From Candidatus Krumholzibacteriota bacterium (GTDB lineage Bacteria > Krumholzibacteriota > Krumholzibacteriia > LZORAL124-64-63), in assembly GCA_039714075.1 (NCBI GenBank), contig JBDLKA010000113.1, positions 1 to 11,073 of the forward strand: a DNA stretch of 11,073 nucleotides, given 5' to 3'. Numbering within the stretch: position 1 is the first letter of the stretch; each line of letters begins with the position of its first letter. Both the position numbers and the translations under genes were made by a program. The notes under the pieces are model-generated. The model saw nothing but the letters and a program-made list of their open reading frames with translations. It had not been told where the DNA came from and did no database searches. Positions 2,308 through 9,821 of the stretch are shown here, one piece after another.

Positions 2308-3987
2308 ATGGCTCAGCAGTACATCTACACCATGCAGGGACTGAAGAAGGTCGTGCCCGGCGGCAAGGAAATCCTCAAGGGCATCTGGCTCTCCTTCTTT
2401 CCCGGAGCCAAGATCGGCGTTATCGGCCTGAACGGGGCGGGCAAATCGACCCTGTTGAAGATCATGGCCGGGCTCGACGACGACTTCATCGGCGAAGCCA
2501 AACCCGACCCTTCGATCAAGGTGGGCTACCTGGCGCAGGAGCCCCAGCTCGACCTGTCCAAGGACGTCAAGGGCAACGTCGAAGAGGGCGTGGCCGCCAT
2601 GAAGGCCAAGCTGGACCGCTTCAACGAGATCAGTATGAAGATGTGCGAACCCATCGAAGACGACGAGATGAACAAGCTGATGGAGGAGATGGGCAAGCTA
2701 CAGGCCGAGATCGACGCCTCCGAAGGCTGGGACCTGGACCGCCACCTGGAAATCGCCATGGACGCCCTGCGCTGCCCGCCCGGCGACGCCGACGTGTCCA
2801 CCTTGTCTGGCGGTGAAATCCGCCGCGTGGCCCTGTGCCAGTTGCTGCTGAAAAAACCCGACCTGCTGCTTTTGGACGAGCCCACCAACCACCTGGACGC
2901 CGAGTCCGTGGCCTGGCTGGAACGCCATCTGCGGGAATACGAGGGCACCGTGGTGATCGTGACCCACGACCGCTACTTCCTGGACAACGTCACCGGCTGG
3001 ATCCTGGAGCTGGACATGGGCCAGGGCATCCCCTGGGAGGGCAACTACTCTTCCTGGCTGGAGCAGAAGCAGAACAAACTGCTGGAGCAGGAAAAGAAGG
3101 ACAACAAGCGCCTCAAAACCCTCCAAAGAGAGCTGGAGTGGGTCAATGCCTCGCAGAAGGCGCGGCAGAAGAAGAGCAAGGCGCGTGTCAGCCAATACGA
3201 AGAGCTGGTCAGCCAGGATCGCGAAATGCAGCAGGGCACCGCGCAAATCCGCATCCCCACCGGCGAACGGCTGGGCAACGTGGTCGTGAAGGCCGAAAAG
3301 GTGCGCAAGGCCTTCGGTGAGAAGCTGCTGTTCGACGACCTGAACTTCCATCTGCCGCGCGGCGGCATCGTGGGCGTGGTCGGCCCCAACGGCGCGGGCA
3401 AGACCACCCTGATGCGCATGATCACCGGCGACGAGACCCCCGACAGCGGCGAATTGACCATCGGGGAAACCGTGCAGCTGGCCTACGTGGACCAGTCGCG
3501 CGACGACCTGGACGGCGAAAAGACGGTCTGGGAAAACATCTCCGGCGGCGCCGACGAACTGGACCTGGGCGGCGTGATGGTCAACAGCCGCGCCTACTGC
3601 AGCGGCTTCAACTTCAAGGGCCACGACCAGCAGCGGAAGGTCGGCACCCTGTCGGGCGGCGAACGCAACCGGGTGCATCTGGCGCGTCTGTTGAAGAGCG
3701 GCGCCAACCTGATCCTGCTCGATGAGCCCACCAACGATCTGGACGTCGATACCCTGCGCGCGCTGGAAGACGCACTGATCTCGTTCGGCGGCTGCCTGGT
3801 CGTCGTCAGCCATGATCGCTGGTTCCTGGACCGGATCTGCACGCACACGCTGGCCTTCGAGGGGGACAGTAATGTGGCCTGGTACGAGGGGTCATACTCC
3901 GAGTACGAAGCCGATCGCAGGCGGCGGTTGGGTGAAGACGCTGACCAACCGCACAGGATCAAGTATCGCAAGCTGACACACGGGTAG
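2308..3987 (+). CDS. ettA: Energy-dependent translational throttle protein EttA (ABC-F ATPase)
   Basis: Two ABC domains (GLNGAGKST / LSGGE / [11 protein letters not shown] and GPNGAGKTT / LSGGE / [11 protein letters not shown]), no TM segments. Typical EttA termini AQQYIYTM...[11 protein letters not shown] and HRIKYRKL; linker ELEWV..S.KARQ.KSKAR. Confidence 0.96.
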
Positions 3988-4111
3988 GGGTGGTGGTTTT
4001 TCCACCTCCTCGAACAGCACAGACCCTCTCTGAAAAATGTCCTCGTCCGAGCCCTGCGGATTATTTTCAGAGAGGGTCTGTGCTGTTCGAGGAGGTGGAA
4101 AAAGCACCGCC
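3985..4111 (+). repeat. Long palindromic element copy 1: 40-bp perfect arms around a conserved 27-nt core
   Basis: 3997-4036 is the exact reverse complement of 4064-4103, and pairing extends imperfectly to 3989/4111. Core 4037-4063 is ATGTCCTCGTCCGAGCCCTGCGGATTA. The element begins TAGGGGTGGT at the ettA stop codon. Confidence 0.9.
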
Positions 4112-4186
4112 GCAACTCGAAGGTAACCTGCGGAACATCTACCTGGTGGATGCCCTCCCACCACCAAGCGGCCGTGCCATTCTGGG

Positions 4187-4208
4187 AAGTGTCCCCGGGG
4201 GCACTTTT
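4187..4208 (+). terminator. Possible intrinsic terminator between convergent ettA and the peptidase gene
   Basis: AAGTGTCC-CCGG-GGGCACTT stem (one G:U pair) running into TTTT. The U-tract is short. Confidence 0.5.
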
Positions 4209-4239
4209 CGTCGACTGAGACAAGAACTTCGCCCAAAGG

Positions 4240-6024
4240 TCAATTCAGAGAGTCGACCACCTCGCGGGAATCCAGGGCGCCCACCGGATAAATACCAACG
4301 CGTTGATCGAAGTATGGAGTCTTGGCGTAGAACCAGTAGCGGATCGCCCAGGGATCGGCGGCGAATTCGGGGTCGGCGGCCTTTCGTTCGGCCAGCTCCA
4401 CCGCCAACGACGGATCTTCCTTCAGCATTTCGATGATCATTTCCTCGATGACGTAGGACTCTACGTATTCCACCTGCTCGAAGACCGCGTCGAAAAAACC
4501 CCACTGCACCAGGGAGTCGGGGCCCTTGGGTTCCAGCAGGTGGGCGGCCACGCGCGCGGCTCTCTGGTTCATGTCCACCACCACCGATCCGGCGGGGAAA
4601 AGGCGGGTCTCGGTCAGGGGTTCGGCGGTGAAGGTGACCGGGTGACGCCCTTCATAGGGGCGCTCCCGCCATTTCGCTTCGGAGAATTTCCAGGTGCGGA
4701 TTTCAAGCTCCGCCGGTGAGGCCAACCGACGGAAAGCCACACCGTGGGCCGCCAGGCGCTCGATCGCCACGGTCCATGCGGGCGGGATGATGTAGGCCTC
4801 GGGCAGGTCGGCGGTCACCGAAGGGGTGTGTTTGCCGAAAAACCACAAGTCGCTTGTTTCGGGCTCGCCGGTGAACCGGTTCCACTCGCCCCCCGTCACC
4901 TCGCTGGTGATTGTTTCGTAGGACACGCCGGCAAACGCGACGGTGGTGGAATCGGCGGCCAGATCGAATTTCAACGGGTAGGGTTCGGAGCGAAAATCGG
5001 CACCGGCGGTGGCCTCATCCGCCGCTGCGACCAGGTCGCAAAGCTGTTCCGCCTCGGTGTTCAGCCAACCGAGGGTGTGGGTCACCAACTGTTTGGCGCT
5101 TTGTACGCGCGTGGCGTAATCCTTGAGCATGTGCGTTTCGATCAACAGGCCCGGCCGATTCTGCAGGGCGGTGTAACCCTGGCTGAACCGGGGGGTCGCC
5201 ACCCAGGTTTTCAGGCCGCTGCGCGGATCGTGCCACTTTTTGAAGGCCACATAGGGCGCCATGGGGAACCCGTCGGCGGCCATGGCCTCGTTCATTTTTT
5301 CCTCGTAGGCAATGGTCCATTCGGTCAGCCCCGGGTCCATGTTGCCGCGGGTCTCCAGGCTGTAGGTGATCGGATACTGGTAGTCGGCGCCGTCGGTGGA
5401 GTGGATGTCGATGAAAAAATCGGGCAGCCACTCGTTGAACATACCGAGCCACGCCCGCATTTCCGGAGTGTCGGCCTTCAGGTAATCGCGGTTCAGGTTC
5501 AGGTTCTGCCCCGTGACCCGCCAGCCCATCTCCTCGGGACCGTTCTGGTTGACGCGGCTGTAGGGACTGAAGCGCTCGTGCCCGTCCACGTTGAAGATGG
5601 GCACGAAGAGGATCGTCACCCTGTCCAGCAGTTCCGCCGCCAGGGCGGGATCCTCGGCCAGATCCCGCAGCAGCAGCATGCCCGCGTCCTTGCCGCAGGA
5701 TTCGCCGGCGTGGATGCAGGCCTGGACCAGCAGCACCACCCGGCCGGTGCGGTCATGGTGGTCCGCCGGCGCGAACCGTCCCTGGCGGTCGGCAATGACC
5801 AGAGGCAGCGAACGACCCTGGGGACTGGTGCCGAAAGTCGTCAGCTCGATGAGCGGGCTGCCCTCCGCCAAATCGGCGAACCAGGCCATGGTGTTTTCGT
5901 AGGTGGGCGTTCGAAGTCCGCCGGATTCTTCGAAGGGAGTCGGCACGGCCGACGCGGCGCCCGACAGGACAAGAACTCCGGTCAACAAGGTTAACATCGT
6001 GAAGATCCGGCTCCTGGTCATCAT
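4240..6024 (-). CDS. Secreted M14 family zinc carboxypeptidase (594 aa)
   Basis: Signal peptide ending AASA. Zinc motif IHAGE (HxxE), P..NVDG, NLNRD, third ligand in IDIH and candidate catalytic Glu in LLIETH, plus a C-terminal extension. SD-like GGAG before the start. Confidence 0.92.
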   Translation of the reverse strand: MMTRSRIFTMLTLLTGVLVLSGAASAVPTPFEESGGLRTPTYENTMAWFADLAEGSPLIELTTFGTSPQGRSLPLVIADRQGRFAPADHHDRTGRVVLLVQACIHAGESCGKDAGMLLLRDLAEDPALAAELLDRVTILFVPIFNVDGHERFSPYSRVNQNGPEEMGWRVTGQNLNLNRDYLKADTPEMRAWLGMFNEWLPDFFIDIHSTDGADYQYPITYSLETRGNMDPGLTEWTIAYEEKMNEAMAADGFPMAPYVAFKKWHDPRSGLKTWVATPRFSQGYTALQNRPGLLIETHMLKDYATRVQSAKQLVTHTLGWLNTEAEQLCDLVAAADEATAGADFRSEPYPLKFDLAADSTTVAFAGVSYETITSEVTGGEWNRFTGEPETSDLWFFGKHTPSVTADLPEAYIIPPAWTVAIERLAAHGVAFRRLASPAELEIRTWKFSEAKWRERPYEGRHPVTFTAEPLTETRLFPAGSVVVDMNQRAARVAAHLLEPKGPDSLVQWGFFDAVFEQVEYVESYVIEEMIIEMLKEDPSLAVELAERKAADPEFAADPWAIRYWFYAKTPYFDQRVGIYPVGALDSREVVDSLN

Positions 6025-6054
6025 GCTCCATCCATCCTTCTTGGTCTGTGGTTA

Positions 6055-6063
6055 TGTGGATAA
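6055..6063 (-). promoter_or_regulatory. Single perfect DnaA-box match (TTATCCACA)
   Basis: The plus strand reads TGTGGATAA, with an abutting 2-mismatch copy TGTGGTTAT at 6047-6055. Function is unproven. Confidence 0.3.
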
Positions 6064-6103
6064 CCTGGACGATACTACTGAATCCCAGCCAAAAGGATGC
6101 AGG

Positions 6104-6140
6104 AAAAAACAAGAGGGAGCCCCCGGGGGGACTCCCTCTT
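6104..6140 (-). terminator. Rho-independent terminator of the beta-barrel gene
   Basis: The minus strand reads AAGAGGGAGTCCC..GGGGCTCCCTCTT-GTTTTTT, 60 nt after the stop at 6201. Confidence 0.85.
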
Positions 6141-6200
6141 TCTGCAGGTATTACCGGCGCGCCTGACAGGGCGGAGCGTTCCGGATTGGGTTTTTCCTGT

Positions 6201-7379
6201 CTACCAGGCCAACCAGGCGGACAGGTAGGCAATGGGATCGTTGCCGATACCCTGGTTGCCGTTCAGGACAACATAACCGCTGTGCAGGGTCTGTTCTTCC
6301 AGAGCCATGTCGATGCCCCAGTTACCCTTGTCGACGCCCAGACCGAAGGTCCAGAAGAAGTCGTACGCACGTTCATTGTATTCATCCACCAGATCGACGC
6401 CGACTTCCTCGGACATGGTCTCGGTGGCGTTGTAGGACCTCACGCCGCCACGGGTAACGAACCAGGAGTTCAGGTAATACTCCATGGCGATGTTGTAACC
6501 GGGGAAGCTCATGGTCTTCCAATAGTCATCTCCGCCGAAGTCGTACTTCAGGTATTCGAAGTTCATGTAGGCGGCGACTTCCCACTCACCGGGATTGCCC
6601 CAAACAGGACCGAAGGAACCCCGGAAGCCGGTGGTGGACACATCTTCCGCGCCATCGGCATCGGGGCTATGGGAACCGTTGCCGAAGGCCGCGATCCAGC
6701 GCCAATCCAACCCGCCCATATCTTCCAGATCGCCCCGGGCCAGCAGGCTGAAGTTGAACATGCCGTAGTCGTTCTGGTTCTGGGGATCCAGCCCGTCGGA
6801 CTTGTCCTCGTAGCCACCAAAGCCGACTTCAGCGGCCAGATCGATCGTGCCGAGCGTGATACCGGCCTGGAGGCTCAGCATGCTGAGGCTCTCGTCGACA
6901 TCAGCTCCCGGCGTGCCGCCGGTAAACTCGTCTTTACTCGAGGCGTAGCTGATATTGACACCGAAGGGAGTGTCGCCCAGGTGGGTGGCCAATCCCAGGT
7001 CCCACCACTCCATGGGATCCTCGATGATCCCGGGAACACCGAACATCGGGAATGTGCCGAAACGATCGGCCGAGCCGGCGGCCCACGTGGCCGTGTTGTT
7101 CAGGAAATCACTCCGGCCGGTGTTGAAGTTCCACACCATGTTGTCGCCGAAGACCACCGAAGCGTTGCCTTCGTCGCCATTACCGGGAGCCATGTCGATG
7201 ATGACACGGTTCTTGTACTTGTGAAGCAGCTGGGGAAAGGCAAACATGTCATCAGCGTCATTGATGAACTGGTTGCCGGCAAGACTGGACCGACGTGCGG
7301 CCTGGGCATCCATGGCACCGGACACCAGAACGAGCGTCAGCGAAAGCAGCATAATAGCGCGCCAAGTATTGGACCTCAT
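6201..7379 (-). CDS. Outer-membrane beta-barrel / porin-like protein (392 aa)
   Basis: Start moved from 7448 to the ATG at 7379 (SD GGAGG at 7389-7393). Signal peptide ending AQA, many alternating aromatic/Gly amphipathic strands, acidic loops and a C-terminal beta-signal-like AYLSAWLAW. Confidence 0.82.
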   Translation of the reverse strand: MRSNTWRAIMLLSLTLVLVSGAMDAQAARRSSLAGNQFINDADDMFAFPQLLHKYKNRVIIDMAPGNGDEGNASVVFGDNMVWNFNTGRSDFLNNTATWAAGSADRFGTFPMFGVPGIIEDPMEWWDLGLATHLGDTPFGVNISYASSKDEFTGGTPGADVDESLSMLSLQAGITLGTIDLAAEVGFGGYEDKSDGLDPQNQNDYGMFNFSLLARGDLEDMGGLDWRWIAAFGNGSHSPDADGAEDVSTTGFRGSFGPVWGNPGEWEVAAYMNFEYLKYDFGGDDYWKTMSFPGYNIAMEYYLNSWFVTRGGVRSYNATETMSEEVGVDLVDEYNERAYDFFWTFGLGVDKGNWGIDMALEEQTLHSGYVVLNGNQGIGNDPIAYLSAWLAW

Positions 7380-7535
7380 CAGTAGCAACCTCCTGTTTTT
7401 TGATCCAGCATCTGCTCCCACCGCGCCGTTCGATCCACATCGATCCATCGTGTCAACCCAGTTGGGCGGCGGTGAGGCAACCTCGTTGTTGCCTCTTCAT
7501 TGCATGATGCCGGGTCAGCTTTTCTACTGATGGGA

Positions 7536-7567
7536 GTAATTAGGAGCCCTCCCCTAAAACCTGTCAA
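7536..7567 (-). promoter_or_regulatory. Possible sigma70 promoter for the beta-barrel gene
   Basis: Perfect -35 TTGACA on the minus strand (7562-7567), but only an imperfect -10 (CCTAAT or TAATTA) at 17-19 nt spacing. Confidence 0.4.
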
Positions 7568-7669
7568 CAGAAAATCCACAATTTTCCCGAATTTTCTGCC
7601 CAAATCCCCCAATAACCCCCAAATTCAGCACTTAATCCCTTGTTTAGGATGTTTCAGATCCATTTGGAT

Positions 7670-7797
7670 GCCTTTTGAGGCCCTGAAAGGGCTCCCTGTG
7701 CACGAAGAACCCGAGTAATCCGCAGGCCGAAGACTGAGGACATCCCGGGTTCTTCGTGCACAGGGAGCCCTTTCAGGGCCCCAAAAGACCACCCCTA
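7670..7797 (-). repeat. Long palindromic element copy 2: 35-bp perfect arms around a conserved 28-nt core
   Basis: 7679-7713 is the exact reverse complement of 7746-7780, and pairing extends to 7670/7789 and 7715/7744 with three A-C mismatches. The core (minus strand, 7743-7716) is ATGTCCTCAGTCTTCGGCCTGCGGATTA. The element begins TAGGGGTGGT at the DUF4097 stop codon. Confidence 0.9.
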
Positions 7798-8715
7798 ATG
7801 TTTCTGAATCACCACATCACCACTGAAGGTATTGATGCGCACCCGGGCGTCCCCCCCGCCGGTGGTAAACTCCAACTCCCTGCCGGGAGCGTACTTGCTC
7901 GTCTTGCGGGATTTCTGACCGAAGCCGTTGTCGATCTCGCCGGAGAAGGTTTCGATCTCGAAGTCGGCGCTCACATCCGCCGGTACGATCAGGGTCAGGT
8001 CGCCGCTGTGCAGGTCGAAGCTGAAATAGGCGTCGTCGGCCAGGTCGCCCTTGACCGTGGCGTCACCGGCCACCGATTCCAGGTTCAGGCCCAGGAACCG
8101 GTCGAAGACCAGATCGATGCTGCCGCTGACGGTCCCGGCCTCGATATCGCTGACCTTGCCCCTGGCCTTCACCTTGCCGCTGATGCTGCCGATCTCGATT
8201 TCCGGGGCGCCGCCATCGATGAAAACACCGCCGCTGATCGATTCGGCCTCGATCCTTTCGCACGCACCGTTGACGGTGACATCACCGCTGATGGAGGACA
8301 CATCAATCCGGCCGGTGACCTCGGAGACCTCGATGGACGCGCTGATGCATTCCACTTCCAGGCGGCTGCCGTGGGGCACATTGATGACCAGGTCGGCGCT
8401 CCCATTAACATTCTTCTTCTTGGGATAGACGACCTCGATCCGGCTTTTTTTCTTGCCCGCCTTGAACTTGATTTCCTCGATATCACCGGTAAGAGTTGCA
8501 TTCACCCTGACTTCGTTCTTGTCCCAACCGACGACCTGGACCGAACCGGCGATGTTTTCCACCAGGACGGTTCCTTCGGGGGATGCGGGACCGGCGTCCT
8601 CGATTTTCTTGTCGGCCAAAGCGGCCGGAACGGCCAACGTCATCACTAGCAATCCCGTCAGCAAAGCCATGAACCCAAACTTAAGTTCCTTTTCCCCAAC
8701 CAATTCCGTGACCAT
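7795..8715 (-). CDS. DUF4097 family beta-strand repeat exported protein (306 aa)
   Basis: SD AGGAGG and a signal peptide ending PAALA. N.AGSV.V.GWDK.EV and L.I.VP motifs, repeated (S/T)(I/V)SG.(V/I) strands and a terminal NTFSGDV. Confidence 0.88.
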   Translation of the reverse strand: MVTELVGEKELKFGFMALLTGLLVMTLAVPAALADKKIEDAGPASPEGTVLVENIAGSVQVVGWDKNEVRVNATLTGDIEEIKFKAGKKKSRIEVVYPKKKNVNGSADLVINVPHGSRLEVECISASIEVSEVTGRIDVSSISGDVTVNGACERIEAESISGGVFIDGGAPEIEIGSISGKVKARGKVSDIEAGTVSGSIDLVFDRFLGLNLESVAGDATVKGDLADDAYFSFDLHSGDLTLIVPADVSADFEIETFSGEIDNGFGQKSRKTSKYAPGRELEFTTGGGDARVRINTFSGDVVIQKH

Positions 8716-8776: not shown

Positions 8777-9235
8777 CTATTCGCGCACGAGTTTTTCCGA
8801 GTTCCTGCGCAGCAGGTTGCCCCGGGTCTTATGAACCATGAGAACGAGATGGGACAGATTCCGGTTTTCGGGATCGTCAGCCAAAGCAAGGGTCAACTCG
8901 TCCAGGGCCTGGTCGATGACCGCCATGCCGTTGCTCCCGGCTTCCGGCCGGCCGGCCAGTTCCGGCACCGCCCTCTGTCCGGTGATCGAACGCATTCCGA
9001 GCCAACCGGCGGCCAACATCAGGGTCAGCGCCGCCGCCGTGGCCGTGATCCGCAACCAGCCGGCAACATGACGGCTTGGCAAACGGCTGCGGCCCCCTTG
9101 TTCCTCCCGGTCGATGGCGGCCTCGATGTCAGGCCACAGATCGCGGTCCGGAGCCGTACCGATGTCCCGCATCTGTCCCGCCAGACGTTCCAACTGCCTG
9201 TCCTGCTGATGGTTTTGTGATGGATTACGCCCCAT
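8777..9235 (-). CDS. Putative transmembrane anti-sigma factor (152 aa)
   Basis: 11-bp overlap with the ECF sigma gene and SD GGAGG. Cytoplasmic P.RDLWP.I..I motif, one TM helix (TAAALTLMLAAGWL) and a C-terminal helical AL..DP.N..L segment. Confidence 0.75.
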   Translation of the reverse strand: MGRNPSQNHQQDRQLERLAGQMRDIGTAPDRDLWPDIEAAIDREEQGGRSRLPSRHVAGWLRITATAAALTLMLAAGWLGMRSITGQRAVPELAGRPEAGSNGMAVIDQALDELTLALADDPENRNLSHLVLMVHKTRGNLLRRNSEKLVRE

Positions 9236-9821
9236 GAGCGGCCTCCCTGTCCTCGGCCAACATTTTTCTGAGAAGGCGCCGGGCCCGGTGCAGCTGGGCT
9301 TTCACCGTTCCGACGGCCAGATCTAGCAATTCCGCGATTTCCCGGTGGGTGTAGCCCTCCACGTCGTGAAAGACGAACACCAACCGTCCCCCTTCGGGCA
9401 GCCTTGCAATGCAACGCTCCAGGTCCATTCCGGTCAAAAGGTCGATGACCCCGTCCCGGTCAGGCCGCCGGGCGACCTTTATTTCCTCCACCAACCGACC
9501 TTGGCGGGCCGTGGCCCGGAATCGATCCCGCCACAGATTCACCGCCACCCGTCCCAGCCAGCCACCCAGATTGCCGCGACCGGCATACCCGGACATGGCG
9601 AACCAGGCTTTGACGAATGTGTCCTGGGTCAGCGTTTCGGCCTCACCGACATCGGTCGTCAGACGAAGGCAAAGCCCGTAAACCCTGTTAACATGGCGGC
9701 GGTAGATTTCTTCAAAGGCCGCCCGGTCCCCCTCGGCAGCCCTTTCAGCCAACCCGCGGTCAATGGCCAGGTTTTCCCCCGCCAGGGCCGATTGTGGGTA
9801 TTTTAACCTTCGTTCTGCCAT
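9225..9821 (-). CDS. ECF RNA polymerase sigma factor (198 aa)
   Basis: Region 2 (GDRAAFEEIY...AETLTQDTFVKAW...WL.RVAVN) and region 4 (LP.G.R.VFV.HDVEGYTH.EIA..L....GTVKAQLHRAR), with no region 3. Confidence 0.93.
   Translation of the reverse strand: MAERRLKYPQSALAGENLAIDRGLAERAAEGDRAAFEEIYRRHVNRVYGLCLRLTTDVGEAETLTQDTFVKAWFAMSGYAGRGNLGGWLGRVAVNLWRDRFRATARQGRLVEEIKVARRPDRDGVIDLLTGMDLERCIARLPEGGRLVFVFHDVEGYTHREIAELLDLAVGTVKAQLHRARRLLRKMLAEDREAAHGA

Follow-up and report, generated by a model that had tools for sequence, protein, structure and literature searches.

One question raised by an 11,073-nucleotide stretch of DNA from a Candidatus Krumholzibacteriota bacterium (positions 1 to 11,073 of contig JBDLKA010000113.1 in assembly GCA_039714075.1, the whole of which is called the window in what follows) is what kind of element is represented by two long palindromes that stand behind two different genes, agree with each other in the loop and differ in the arms. 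A preliminary description, made from the letters of the window alone, had taken them for members of an undescribed family with a conserved core on arms of free sequence. Both palindromes, here copy 1 and copy 2, were re-found where that description had placed them, and they belong to a genuine family of gene-end hairpins in one group of uncultured marine-sediment bacteria. Each copy carries at its apex a constant asymmetric tip, GUCCUC-R-(variable mini-hairpin)-C-UGCGGA, the invariant core parts being, in DNA letters, GTCCTC and CTGCGGA. The proposal of a conserved tip on free arms is upheld across the family, where the core is constant and the arms are unique or drifting.

Copy 1 has its foot at the TAG stop codon (3985-3987) of a gene for an ABC-F type ATPase. 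Its 27-nt core (4037..4063, +), composed of ATGTCCTC, a degenerate tip and CTGCGGATTA, and aligned here with 42 other cores, is held between two 40-nt arms in perfect complementarity, the 5' arm occupying 3997..4036 (+), with looser pairing outward to 3981, over the stop codon, and the 3' arm 4064..4103 (+), with looser pairing out to 4119. The core is flanked as GAAAA-core-TTTTC; since the 3' arm opens with TTTTC, a T-run follows immediately 3' of the core hairpin, and a scan for terminator-like structures picks up copy 1 at 4045-4061 together with the tail TATTTTCAGA. Copy 2 (7672-7787, minus strand) has as its foot the TAG stop codon (7795-7797, -) of a DUF4097 gene and begins 8 nt past it. 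Its 28-nt core, ATGTCCTC-A-GTC(TTCG)GC-C-TGCGGATTA (7716..7743, -), stands between a 5' arm at 7744..7787 (-) and a 3' arm at 7672..7715 (-), with a perfect run of 35 bp inside 42-bp arms in which 41 of 42 positions are paired. The 28-nt and 27-nt cores align as had been written; the accompanying statement that pairing stops at the core boundaries needs correction for copy 2, where pairing reaches the core via one G-T pair. As RNA, both copies are predicted to fold into a stem made by the arms, followed by a 2x2 loop, then a short helix containing a U.C mismatch, and finally a small hairpin at the tip, the minimum free energies being -101.6 kcal/mol for copy 1 and -111.8 kcal/mol for copy 2 (z ~ -15; 0 of 200 shuffles as good).

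The genome to which the window belongs (G000; 4.06 Mb in 260 contigs, 62% G+C) was scanned with a strict pattern of core head, 8-12 nt and core tail, the reversed pattern serving as control, and yielded 13 matches against 0. When tips of 3-45 nt are allowed and arms required, 28 copies are found with arms of 30-60 bp, which disposes of the 'fixed-length duplex' envisaged earlier; beyond these there are one variant-head copy and one contig-end fragment, for a total of ~29. The expectation that further copies with inverted arms would exist in this and related genomes was borne out. All eight genomes of the genus contain 6-13 strict matches each, with 0 for the reversed pattern, and a covariance model built from an alignment of 43 copies (matching copy 2 itself at 7705-7753 with 64.6 bits) detects the element in 35 out of the 151 genomes sampled from the phylum, every one of them in a single family-level clade and with up to 24 matches per genome, the matches in the 35 positive genomes numbering in hundreds. 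Besides G000, 34 of the 60 sampled genomes of this clade are positive, while the model finds the element in 0 of 90 genomes from the phylum's eight other families.

Comparison of loci between relatives (G001-G005 and further genomes, including G074 from genus g2) separates what is kept from what changes. Copy 2 is present at the same locus, behind the same gene, in G001-G005, with arms that are different yet compensating, and among the six orthologues the core is constant save for G.G in place of U.U in G001 and one change in G002. The copy 1 orthologue in G002 keeps the same unusual tip; the core is missing in G001, G003 and G005, and the G001 locus, where the outer stem persists together with a portion of the 5' arm, looks like the product of an internal deletion. 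Most of the 27 relatives' loci compared with G000 map where G000 has an element too, and within the genus the elements are inherited vertically. Between genera the sets of loci differ: the elements of G074 (22 matches) follow the genes for peroxiredoxin, glutamine synthetase, infB, cyclophilin, GTP cyclohydrolase I and others, and only one of 18 Pfam-annotated cases, ccsA, is common to the upstream genes of G074 and G000. Neighbouring elements often have identical cores, as in G132 (C44:1-2200) and G007 (C121:7900-8800), where two to four identical-core elements lie within ~0.2-1.2 kb; such clusters suggest local spread or conversion between neighbouring gene ends. Contigs C3 and C21 of G074 share a segmental duplication comprising three elements with their flanking genes, the paired copies differing by a few arm substitutions.

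In the tip module GUCCUC and UGCGGA pair with each other apart from a U.C mismatch, and an R-U pair and an additional C complete the module; in the 43-copy alignment the base after GUCCUC is A or G (20:20) opposite a constant U. The tip between head and tail varies widely in G000, from 5 nt without a stem through stems of 3-4 bp and of 9 bp to one insert of 42 nt. A small peptide read from the core ATG was considered and rejected, the tip lengths from 5 to 42 nt not being multiples of three and some variants being without the ATG. Three positions on either side of the invariant parts (AUG/UUA in this genus) vary by lineage, and they do so jointly: U.U is swapped for G.G in three elements, A.A for C-G throughout genus g2, and the internal loop is closed to Watson-Crick pairs in one G000 copy and one G074 copy. 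Joint changes at opposing loop positions imply that the two core strands face each other in the fold, in agreement with the earlier suggestion that the tip is read in folded form. A variant-head copy whose lower internal loop is closed to Watson-Crick pairs lies at ~52800-52900 of contig C8 in G000. The variable part of the tip is also strand-specific. Loops of the c(UNCG)g type are especially stable in RNA, and they cap the tip in 38 of 75 elements read in the sense direction as against 1 of 75 read antisense.

The arms obey a different rule. Across the 43-copy alignment 97.9% of the cells are paired, compared with 68.1% on shuffling (0 of 500 shuffles as high) and 34-48% with slid partners; likewise, in the six copy 2 orthologues at least two Watson-Crick pair types occur at 28 of the first 40 arm positions, and unpaired cells amount to 5 of 174 in arm positions 1-29. 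Sequence identity between loci is virtually lacking: 25 of the 28 G000 arms match nothing else in the genome, and the other three match at contig ends. In 75 distinct elements we counted 2857 Watson-Crick pairs and 169 mismatches, among which 58 are of the G-T type and 57 of the A-C type. Pairing that is so nearly pure Watson-Crick, with no excess of G-U, indicates no RNA-style tolerance of wobble in the arms, and arm complementarity looks like a property of the DNA. The 5' arm often reaches back into the upstream coding sequence, by as much as 39 nt, and where it does so the 3' arm must be the copy. The preliminary description had listed, as one possibility, a process that copies one arm from the other; such copying fits the near-pure Watson-Crick arms, the want of a G-U excess and the inversion of the tip between orthologues described below.

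Where these hairpins stand with respect to genes was determined from our own open reading frame (ORF) calls and a codon model trained on long ORFs (2989 genes, 86% coding), and all orientation counts therefore depend on crude calls and include orthologous copies, which are not independent of one another. With this understood, 26 G000 elements have a callable upstream neighbour, and 24 of them start at -39 to +59 nt relative to the stop codon of a gene that runs in their own direction, the remaining two being antisense, and none of the G000 elements lies between divergent genes. In the 24 elements for which an upstream gene was called, stop codon and core are 15-92 nt apart (median 42), so that the nearly fixed distance suggested by the two window copies (49 and 51 nt) does not extend to the family; nor does their common start, TAGGGGTGGT, which only these two show (2/24) and which their orthologues do not retain. 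Functionally, the genes upstream have no relation to each other (rpoC, secF, ackA, RNase E/G, the NiFe-hydrogenase large subunit, ispG, mazG, a ccsA/resB fusion, peptidases, ABC-F and DUF4097), and many of them, namely rpoC, secF, ackA, RNase E/G, the hydrogenase large subunit and ispG, look operon-final. Between tandem neighbours in G000, 10 elements are sense and two antisense; a cruder ORF test, which compares sense-only with antisense-only gene ends, gives 8:1 for G074 and, for loci from genera g1 and g13, 12:3. About half of the G000 copies sit between convergent genes. Inverted pairs of elements within ~750 nt number at least 10, all of them convergent and none divergent, which implies that each convergent gene has its own copy rather than sharing one palindrome with its neighbour. 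Ten G000 copies have a same-strand gene downstream, -156 to 254 nt away (24-254 nt in the seven that do not overlap, by the same calls).

Orientation can nevertheless change at a fixed address. At two loci, C35:19952-20089 (G000 versus G001) and C7:32864-32997 (G000 versus G004), the core is inverted between orthologues with arms, stop codon and flanks in place, and one of the two explains an 'antisense' exception in G000. In its behaviour the core at C35 and C7 resembles a minute invertible segment with the arms as its borders. Flips of this kind come easily to a segment between inverted arms; the strong bias toward sense is therefore either selected or the legacy of a sense-oriented origin with rare flips.

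The composition around the core is terminator-like. The consensus reads a.A.aaag..tCCgGG-core-CCCGgat.cttt.T.t, and against a genomic G+C of 62% T makes up 32-65% at positions 7-18 of the 3' arm, one position excepted, while A there is mostly no more than 17%. Two features of intrinsic terminators are thus present, namely a hairpin rich in G+C with a U-rich tract after it, a tract that the window's canonical terminators have in purer form, and a location at the apparent end of a transcription unit, sense to the upstream gene in the 24 of 26 G000 cases. The verdict 'not intrinsic terminators', reached earlier from T-runs on the 5' and A-runs on the 3' side, was drawn from the outer ends of copy 1 and does not hold for the family, in which the core-proximal sides are A-rich 5' and, after the GC clamp, T-rich 3', and which stands in sense orientation at gene and operon ends. 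Canonical intrinsic terminators with GC stems of 9-13 bp and T-runs do follow other genes of the window (6111-6140, -; 682-703, -; and 100-137), showing that the organism has ordinary terminators alongside the hairpin family.

From these comparisons of sequences we put at about one in two the probability that the family functions at the level of the sense-strand RNA, either as an intrinsic terminator or as a hairpin of the 3' end, its tip module probably serving as a handle for a factor acting in trans. The transcript of the upstream gene would fold into a GC-clamped hairpin with the invariant module, mostly capped by c(UNCG)g, at its tip and a U-rich stretch after it; most likely this hairpin would stop transcription or protect the 3' end of the mRNA at operon ends, and the lopsided module would most likely be the handle. 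The arms, free in sequence, would be kept complementary by events at the DNA level, such as intrastrand template switching or recombination between arms, events that might occasionally flip the tip as well, and over evolutionary time the module could have reached new gene ends by a route similar to that of repetitive extragenic palindromic (REP) sequences or miniature inverted-repeat transposable elements (MITEs).

Several observations weigh against a function as terminator or 3'-end hairpin. Among RNA runs none was found that contains positions 3300-8400 of the window. The genome already has canonical short terminators, and a second class is not obviously needed; moreover, an ordinary terminator requires no invariant tip of ~13 nt, and no partner for it turned up. 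When the inner 25 bp are compared in fixed register, mismatches of the A-C type (42) exceed those of the G-T type (17), the opposite of what would be expected under selection on the sense RNA. The outer arms lie beyond the U-rich stretch and would be missing from a terminated RNA, so that their perfection is not explicable at the RNA level. The orientation counts are weakened by orthologous copies and crude gene calls, as stated above, and the different sets of loci between genera, together with the patchy spread across phyla, fit a mobile element equally well.

The core pattern also occurs beyond the Krumholzibacteriota. A scan with the core pattern of one genome per species gave at least 122 matches at no fewer than 118 loci; among the 122 matches listed, 25 have arms, nine have a tip hairpin of at least 5 bp and are armless, and 88 have neither. 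Viral contigs, used as a chance control, gave 55 pattern matches, none with arms or a tip hairpin. One metagenome-assembled genome (MAG) labelled Bacillota contains 21 matches to the covariance model, the arms being plain terminators of the AAAAGCCC...GGGCTTTT kind, and 5 of 41 genomes comprising this MAG and its relatives have any match; a 'Firmicutes'-labelled MAG has two matches and a Coriobacteriaceae-labelled chromosome one, all three labels being unchecked record titles. The tip-only matches represent a Clostridia repeat of ~240 nt (for example L175:1418-1660, - strand), of which three genomes contain 5, 16 and 27 cores, two of the three having 41-46 copies of the 5' hairpin. The inverted ends of this repeat are similar, a whole terminator hairpin (21-28 nt) is directly duplicated on either side of it, and it carries a locus-variable perfect hairpin just 5' of the core, with structured expansions in one copy; it has no match in Rfam (0 at E<=0.1) and none in phage or plasmid records. 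Five of its cores are in Chakrabartyella piscis (by record title), a cultured organism. An origin of the Krumholzibacteriota arms as directly duplicated whole hairpins, in the style of the Clostridia repeat, was rejected, the sub-hairpin loops in the two arms being reverse complements and not direct copies.

The observations just listed can also be read as those of a selfish DNA element of REP- or MITE-like kind, which we consider possible though distinctly less probable than an RNA function. A transposase or recombinase with its gene at some other place would recognise the tip in the form of folded single-stranded DNA, the module would colonise the tips or the vicinity of terminator hairpins, any terminator activity would be incidental, and sense orientation would reflect target choice or tolerance. 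Such an element would account for the lineage-specific loci, with one of 18 upstream Pfam identities common to G074 and G000, for core and clamp variants specific to genera, for neighbouring elements clustered with identical cores, for the patchiness across phyla exemplified by the 21 matches in one Bacillota-labelled MAG against 5 positive genomes in 41, for arms without G-U tolerance, and for the same module within a Clostridia repeat that has inverted ends, duplicates whole terminators directly and reaches 16-27 cores per MAG. It does not sit well with the near uniqueness of the arms, none of which is common to two unrelated loci (25 of 28 are unique and the other three match at contig ends), nor with the fact that no target duplication was seen around the Krumholzibacteriota copies. 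Most of the within-genus loci tested are common with G000, with similar tips at the same locus (copy 2; copy 1 in G002), at orthologous loci the arms drift under a constant core, and the c(UNCG)g loops are confined to the sense strand. An autonomous copy was not found either: no G000 copy encloses a gene between head and tail, and the genes between paired elements in relatives are ordinary ones for an outer-membrane barrel, a hydrolase, a dehydrogenase and an acetyltransferase. Likewise, none of the 55 pattern matches in viral contigs has the structure of the element.

The candidate mobilising enzymes named in the preliminary description, an HUH transposase or a reverse transcriptase, do not follow the repeats. 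Of 25 genomes searched for a Y1 transposase (PF01797), three gave a match; within the genus two of eight did so, although all eight carry the repeats, the MAGs being 76-93% complete and absence hence not proven; a RAYT/IS200 link is rejected on this distribution. Two tiny contigs of G000, C247 and C256, each carry an ORF of ~250-330 aa with a Y1 transposase domain and gave no element match in the scans. The reverse-transcriptase domain RVT_1 occurs in 19 of 71 genomes of the family-level clade without correlation with the element, since it was not found in the element-rich G000, G003, G006, G007 and G116 and is present in the element-free G014, G015, G017 and G128; this link, too, is rejected. 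An RNA function and a selfish origin are in any case not exclusive, and a mobile origin followed by use in the host would fit all the data.

A different possibility is that the internal loop constitutes a small aptamer or protein-binding switch in the stem of a terminator, tuning at many operon ends simultaneously either convergent transcription or the read-through into genes downstream, in the manner of the riboswitches that are embedded in terminators. We regard a conditional terminator of this sort as improbable. The asymmetric invariant module does lie inside a terminator-like hairpin, its opposing loop positions co-vary as in a structured pocket, and the 10 G000 copies with a same-strand gene downstream would have something to regulate; about half of the copies, however, stand between convergent genes with nothing downstream to regulate, the lower internal loop varies across genera and is closed to Watson-Crick pairs in one copy, a tip of as little as 5 nt leaves little room for a pocket, and no candidate ligand or protein was found. 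Still less credit attaches to the idea that the hairpins give rise to guide-like or hairpin-derived small RNAs, a constant handle presenting a variable arm aimed at other nucleic acids, as the preliminary description had also contemplated. Long perfect duplexes with a constant tip do resemble processed hairpin precursors, and the sole Rfam matches are sub-threshold microRNA-precursor models, which simply reflect the long hairpin. The 'guide-like arm' loses its appeal when it is considered that 25 of the 28 arms match nothing else in the genome, that phage and plasmid records contain no match to either window copy, that many arms overlap the upstream coding end and have their sequence dictated by that gene, and that arms drift freely between orthologues. 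Finally, an artefact of assembly, in which contigs fold back on themselves, had been named as something that would dispose of the elements altogether. The short-read contigs of four public DNA runs do break at the palindromes, none spanning either of them, as is to be expected wherever a long inverted repeat occurs; the element stands at the same loci, with arms that differ and compensate, in as many as five further independent assemblies, and there are hundreds of matches in 35 genomes, such that an artefact is excluded for practical purposes.

A bolder reading would make the tip a cross-phylum module of RNA or of folded DNA with a dedicated partner, the latter being either a factor by which mRNA 3' ends are marked or processed at the tips of terminators, a bacterial counterpart of a stem-loop-binding system, or a structure-specific agent that plants the module into the tips of terminator hairpins. 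This we hold only tentatively, and would sooner bet against than for. Such a partner would explain why a signature of ~13 nt occurs at terminator apices in both Krumholzibacteriota and Bacillota-labelled MAGs, why it recurs inside a Clostridia repeat that duplicates whole terminator hairpins, and why lineages have co-varying loop versions of their own and different gene ends in each genus.

How does the family compare with known elements? A palindromic repeat at gene ends is of a known kind; the pattern of conservation, the cross-phylum module and the flipping tip are, as far as we found, not described. Rfam 15 searched with the window at E<=1 returned only sub-threshold microRNA-precursor or chance matches, the best being MIR831 with 40.4 bits against a gathering score of 100, which agrees with the novelty suggested before. 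No published description of the element was found in the literature consulted, supplements excepted; among the matches listed, the papers on Krumholzibacteri all concern ecology or metabolism, and the literature occurrences of the core tail 10-mer are primer-type coincidences.

The closest resemblance is with the REP/BIME and REPIN-RAYT systems, which are likewise short palindromic repeats present in tens to hundreds of copies outside genes, mostly after gene ends and often between convergent genes. REPs of Proteobacteria are thought to stabilise the upstream mRNA or to attenuate transcription; they conserve the stem and a flanking tag of GTAG type and travel with a Y1 transposase, RAYT. The extragenic, multi-copy placement at gene 3' ends is shared here, whereas the stems are unique to each locus, only the lopsided tip is conserved and no conserved tag follows the stop codon. 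Intrinsic terminators, often bidirectional, are similar in having a GC-rich hairpin after the stop, an A-rich 5' flank, a U-rich 3' flank and frequent UNCG loops, a build that the canonical terminators of the window also have, but they do not share ~13 invariant nt with fixed mismatches, and rarely have 30-60 bp of complementarity extending past the U-tract and into the upstream coding sequence. The Correia elements (CREE/NEMIS) of Neisseria and other MITEs are also foldback repeats at the borders of genes, whose long hairpins in the mRNA influence the 3' end, and some bacterial MITEs supply terminators or RNase III sites. Copies of a MITE agree from one end to the other and have terminal inverted repeats and target duplications; in the present family the copies have no more than the core and a short clamp in common and no duplications were seen, although the Clostridia relative does have features of a MITE.

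Integron attC sites, too, are folded single-strand sites at gene (cassette) ends, in which the structure, the unpaired bases and a variable terminal loop matter and the sequence is largely free. They differ in conserving the outer R and L boxes rather than the tip and in occurring in cassette arrays beside an integrase, while the present hairpins follow housekeeping genes in conserved synteny, which argues against cassettes; no integrase search was made. Hairpin-associated minute inversions and the correction of quasi-palindromes by template switching would explain both the drifting perfect arms and the flipping loop; this is a mutational process and not a functional class, and it leaves the invariant tip unexplained.

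If the preferred reading is right, the family would be a terminator-associated repeat that inverts the logic of REPs, with a constant asymmetric RNA tip on free stems, under constraint and common to unrelated phyla. The signature of ~13 nt and the covariance model could then serve as a handle toward an RNA-binding or DNA-processing partner, and could also annotate operon ends in a phylum without cultured members, the related Clostridia repeat in Chakrabartyella piscis offering a cultured way in. In addition, the family offers a test case for the way in which bacterial chromosomes keep long palindromes perfect, and for the flipping of the loops in them.

As to the genes of the window that carry the two copies, the ABC-F type ATPase gene upstream of copy 1 (2308..3987, +) is an ORF with two ABC_tran domains and ABC_tran_Xtn (Pfam, E 3.7e-51) and is kept by the codon-model gene call. 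The DUF4097 ('toastrack') gene upstream of copy 2 (7795..8715, -; PF13349, E 2.8e-13) is the last of three that are arranged head to tail on the minus strand between 7795 and 9821, after a gene for a sigma factor of the extracytoplasmic function (ECF) type (9225-9821) and an unannotated ORF of 152 aa (8777-9235). This arrangement may represent a sigma / anti-sigma / toastrack module with copy 2 at its end.

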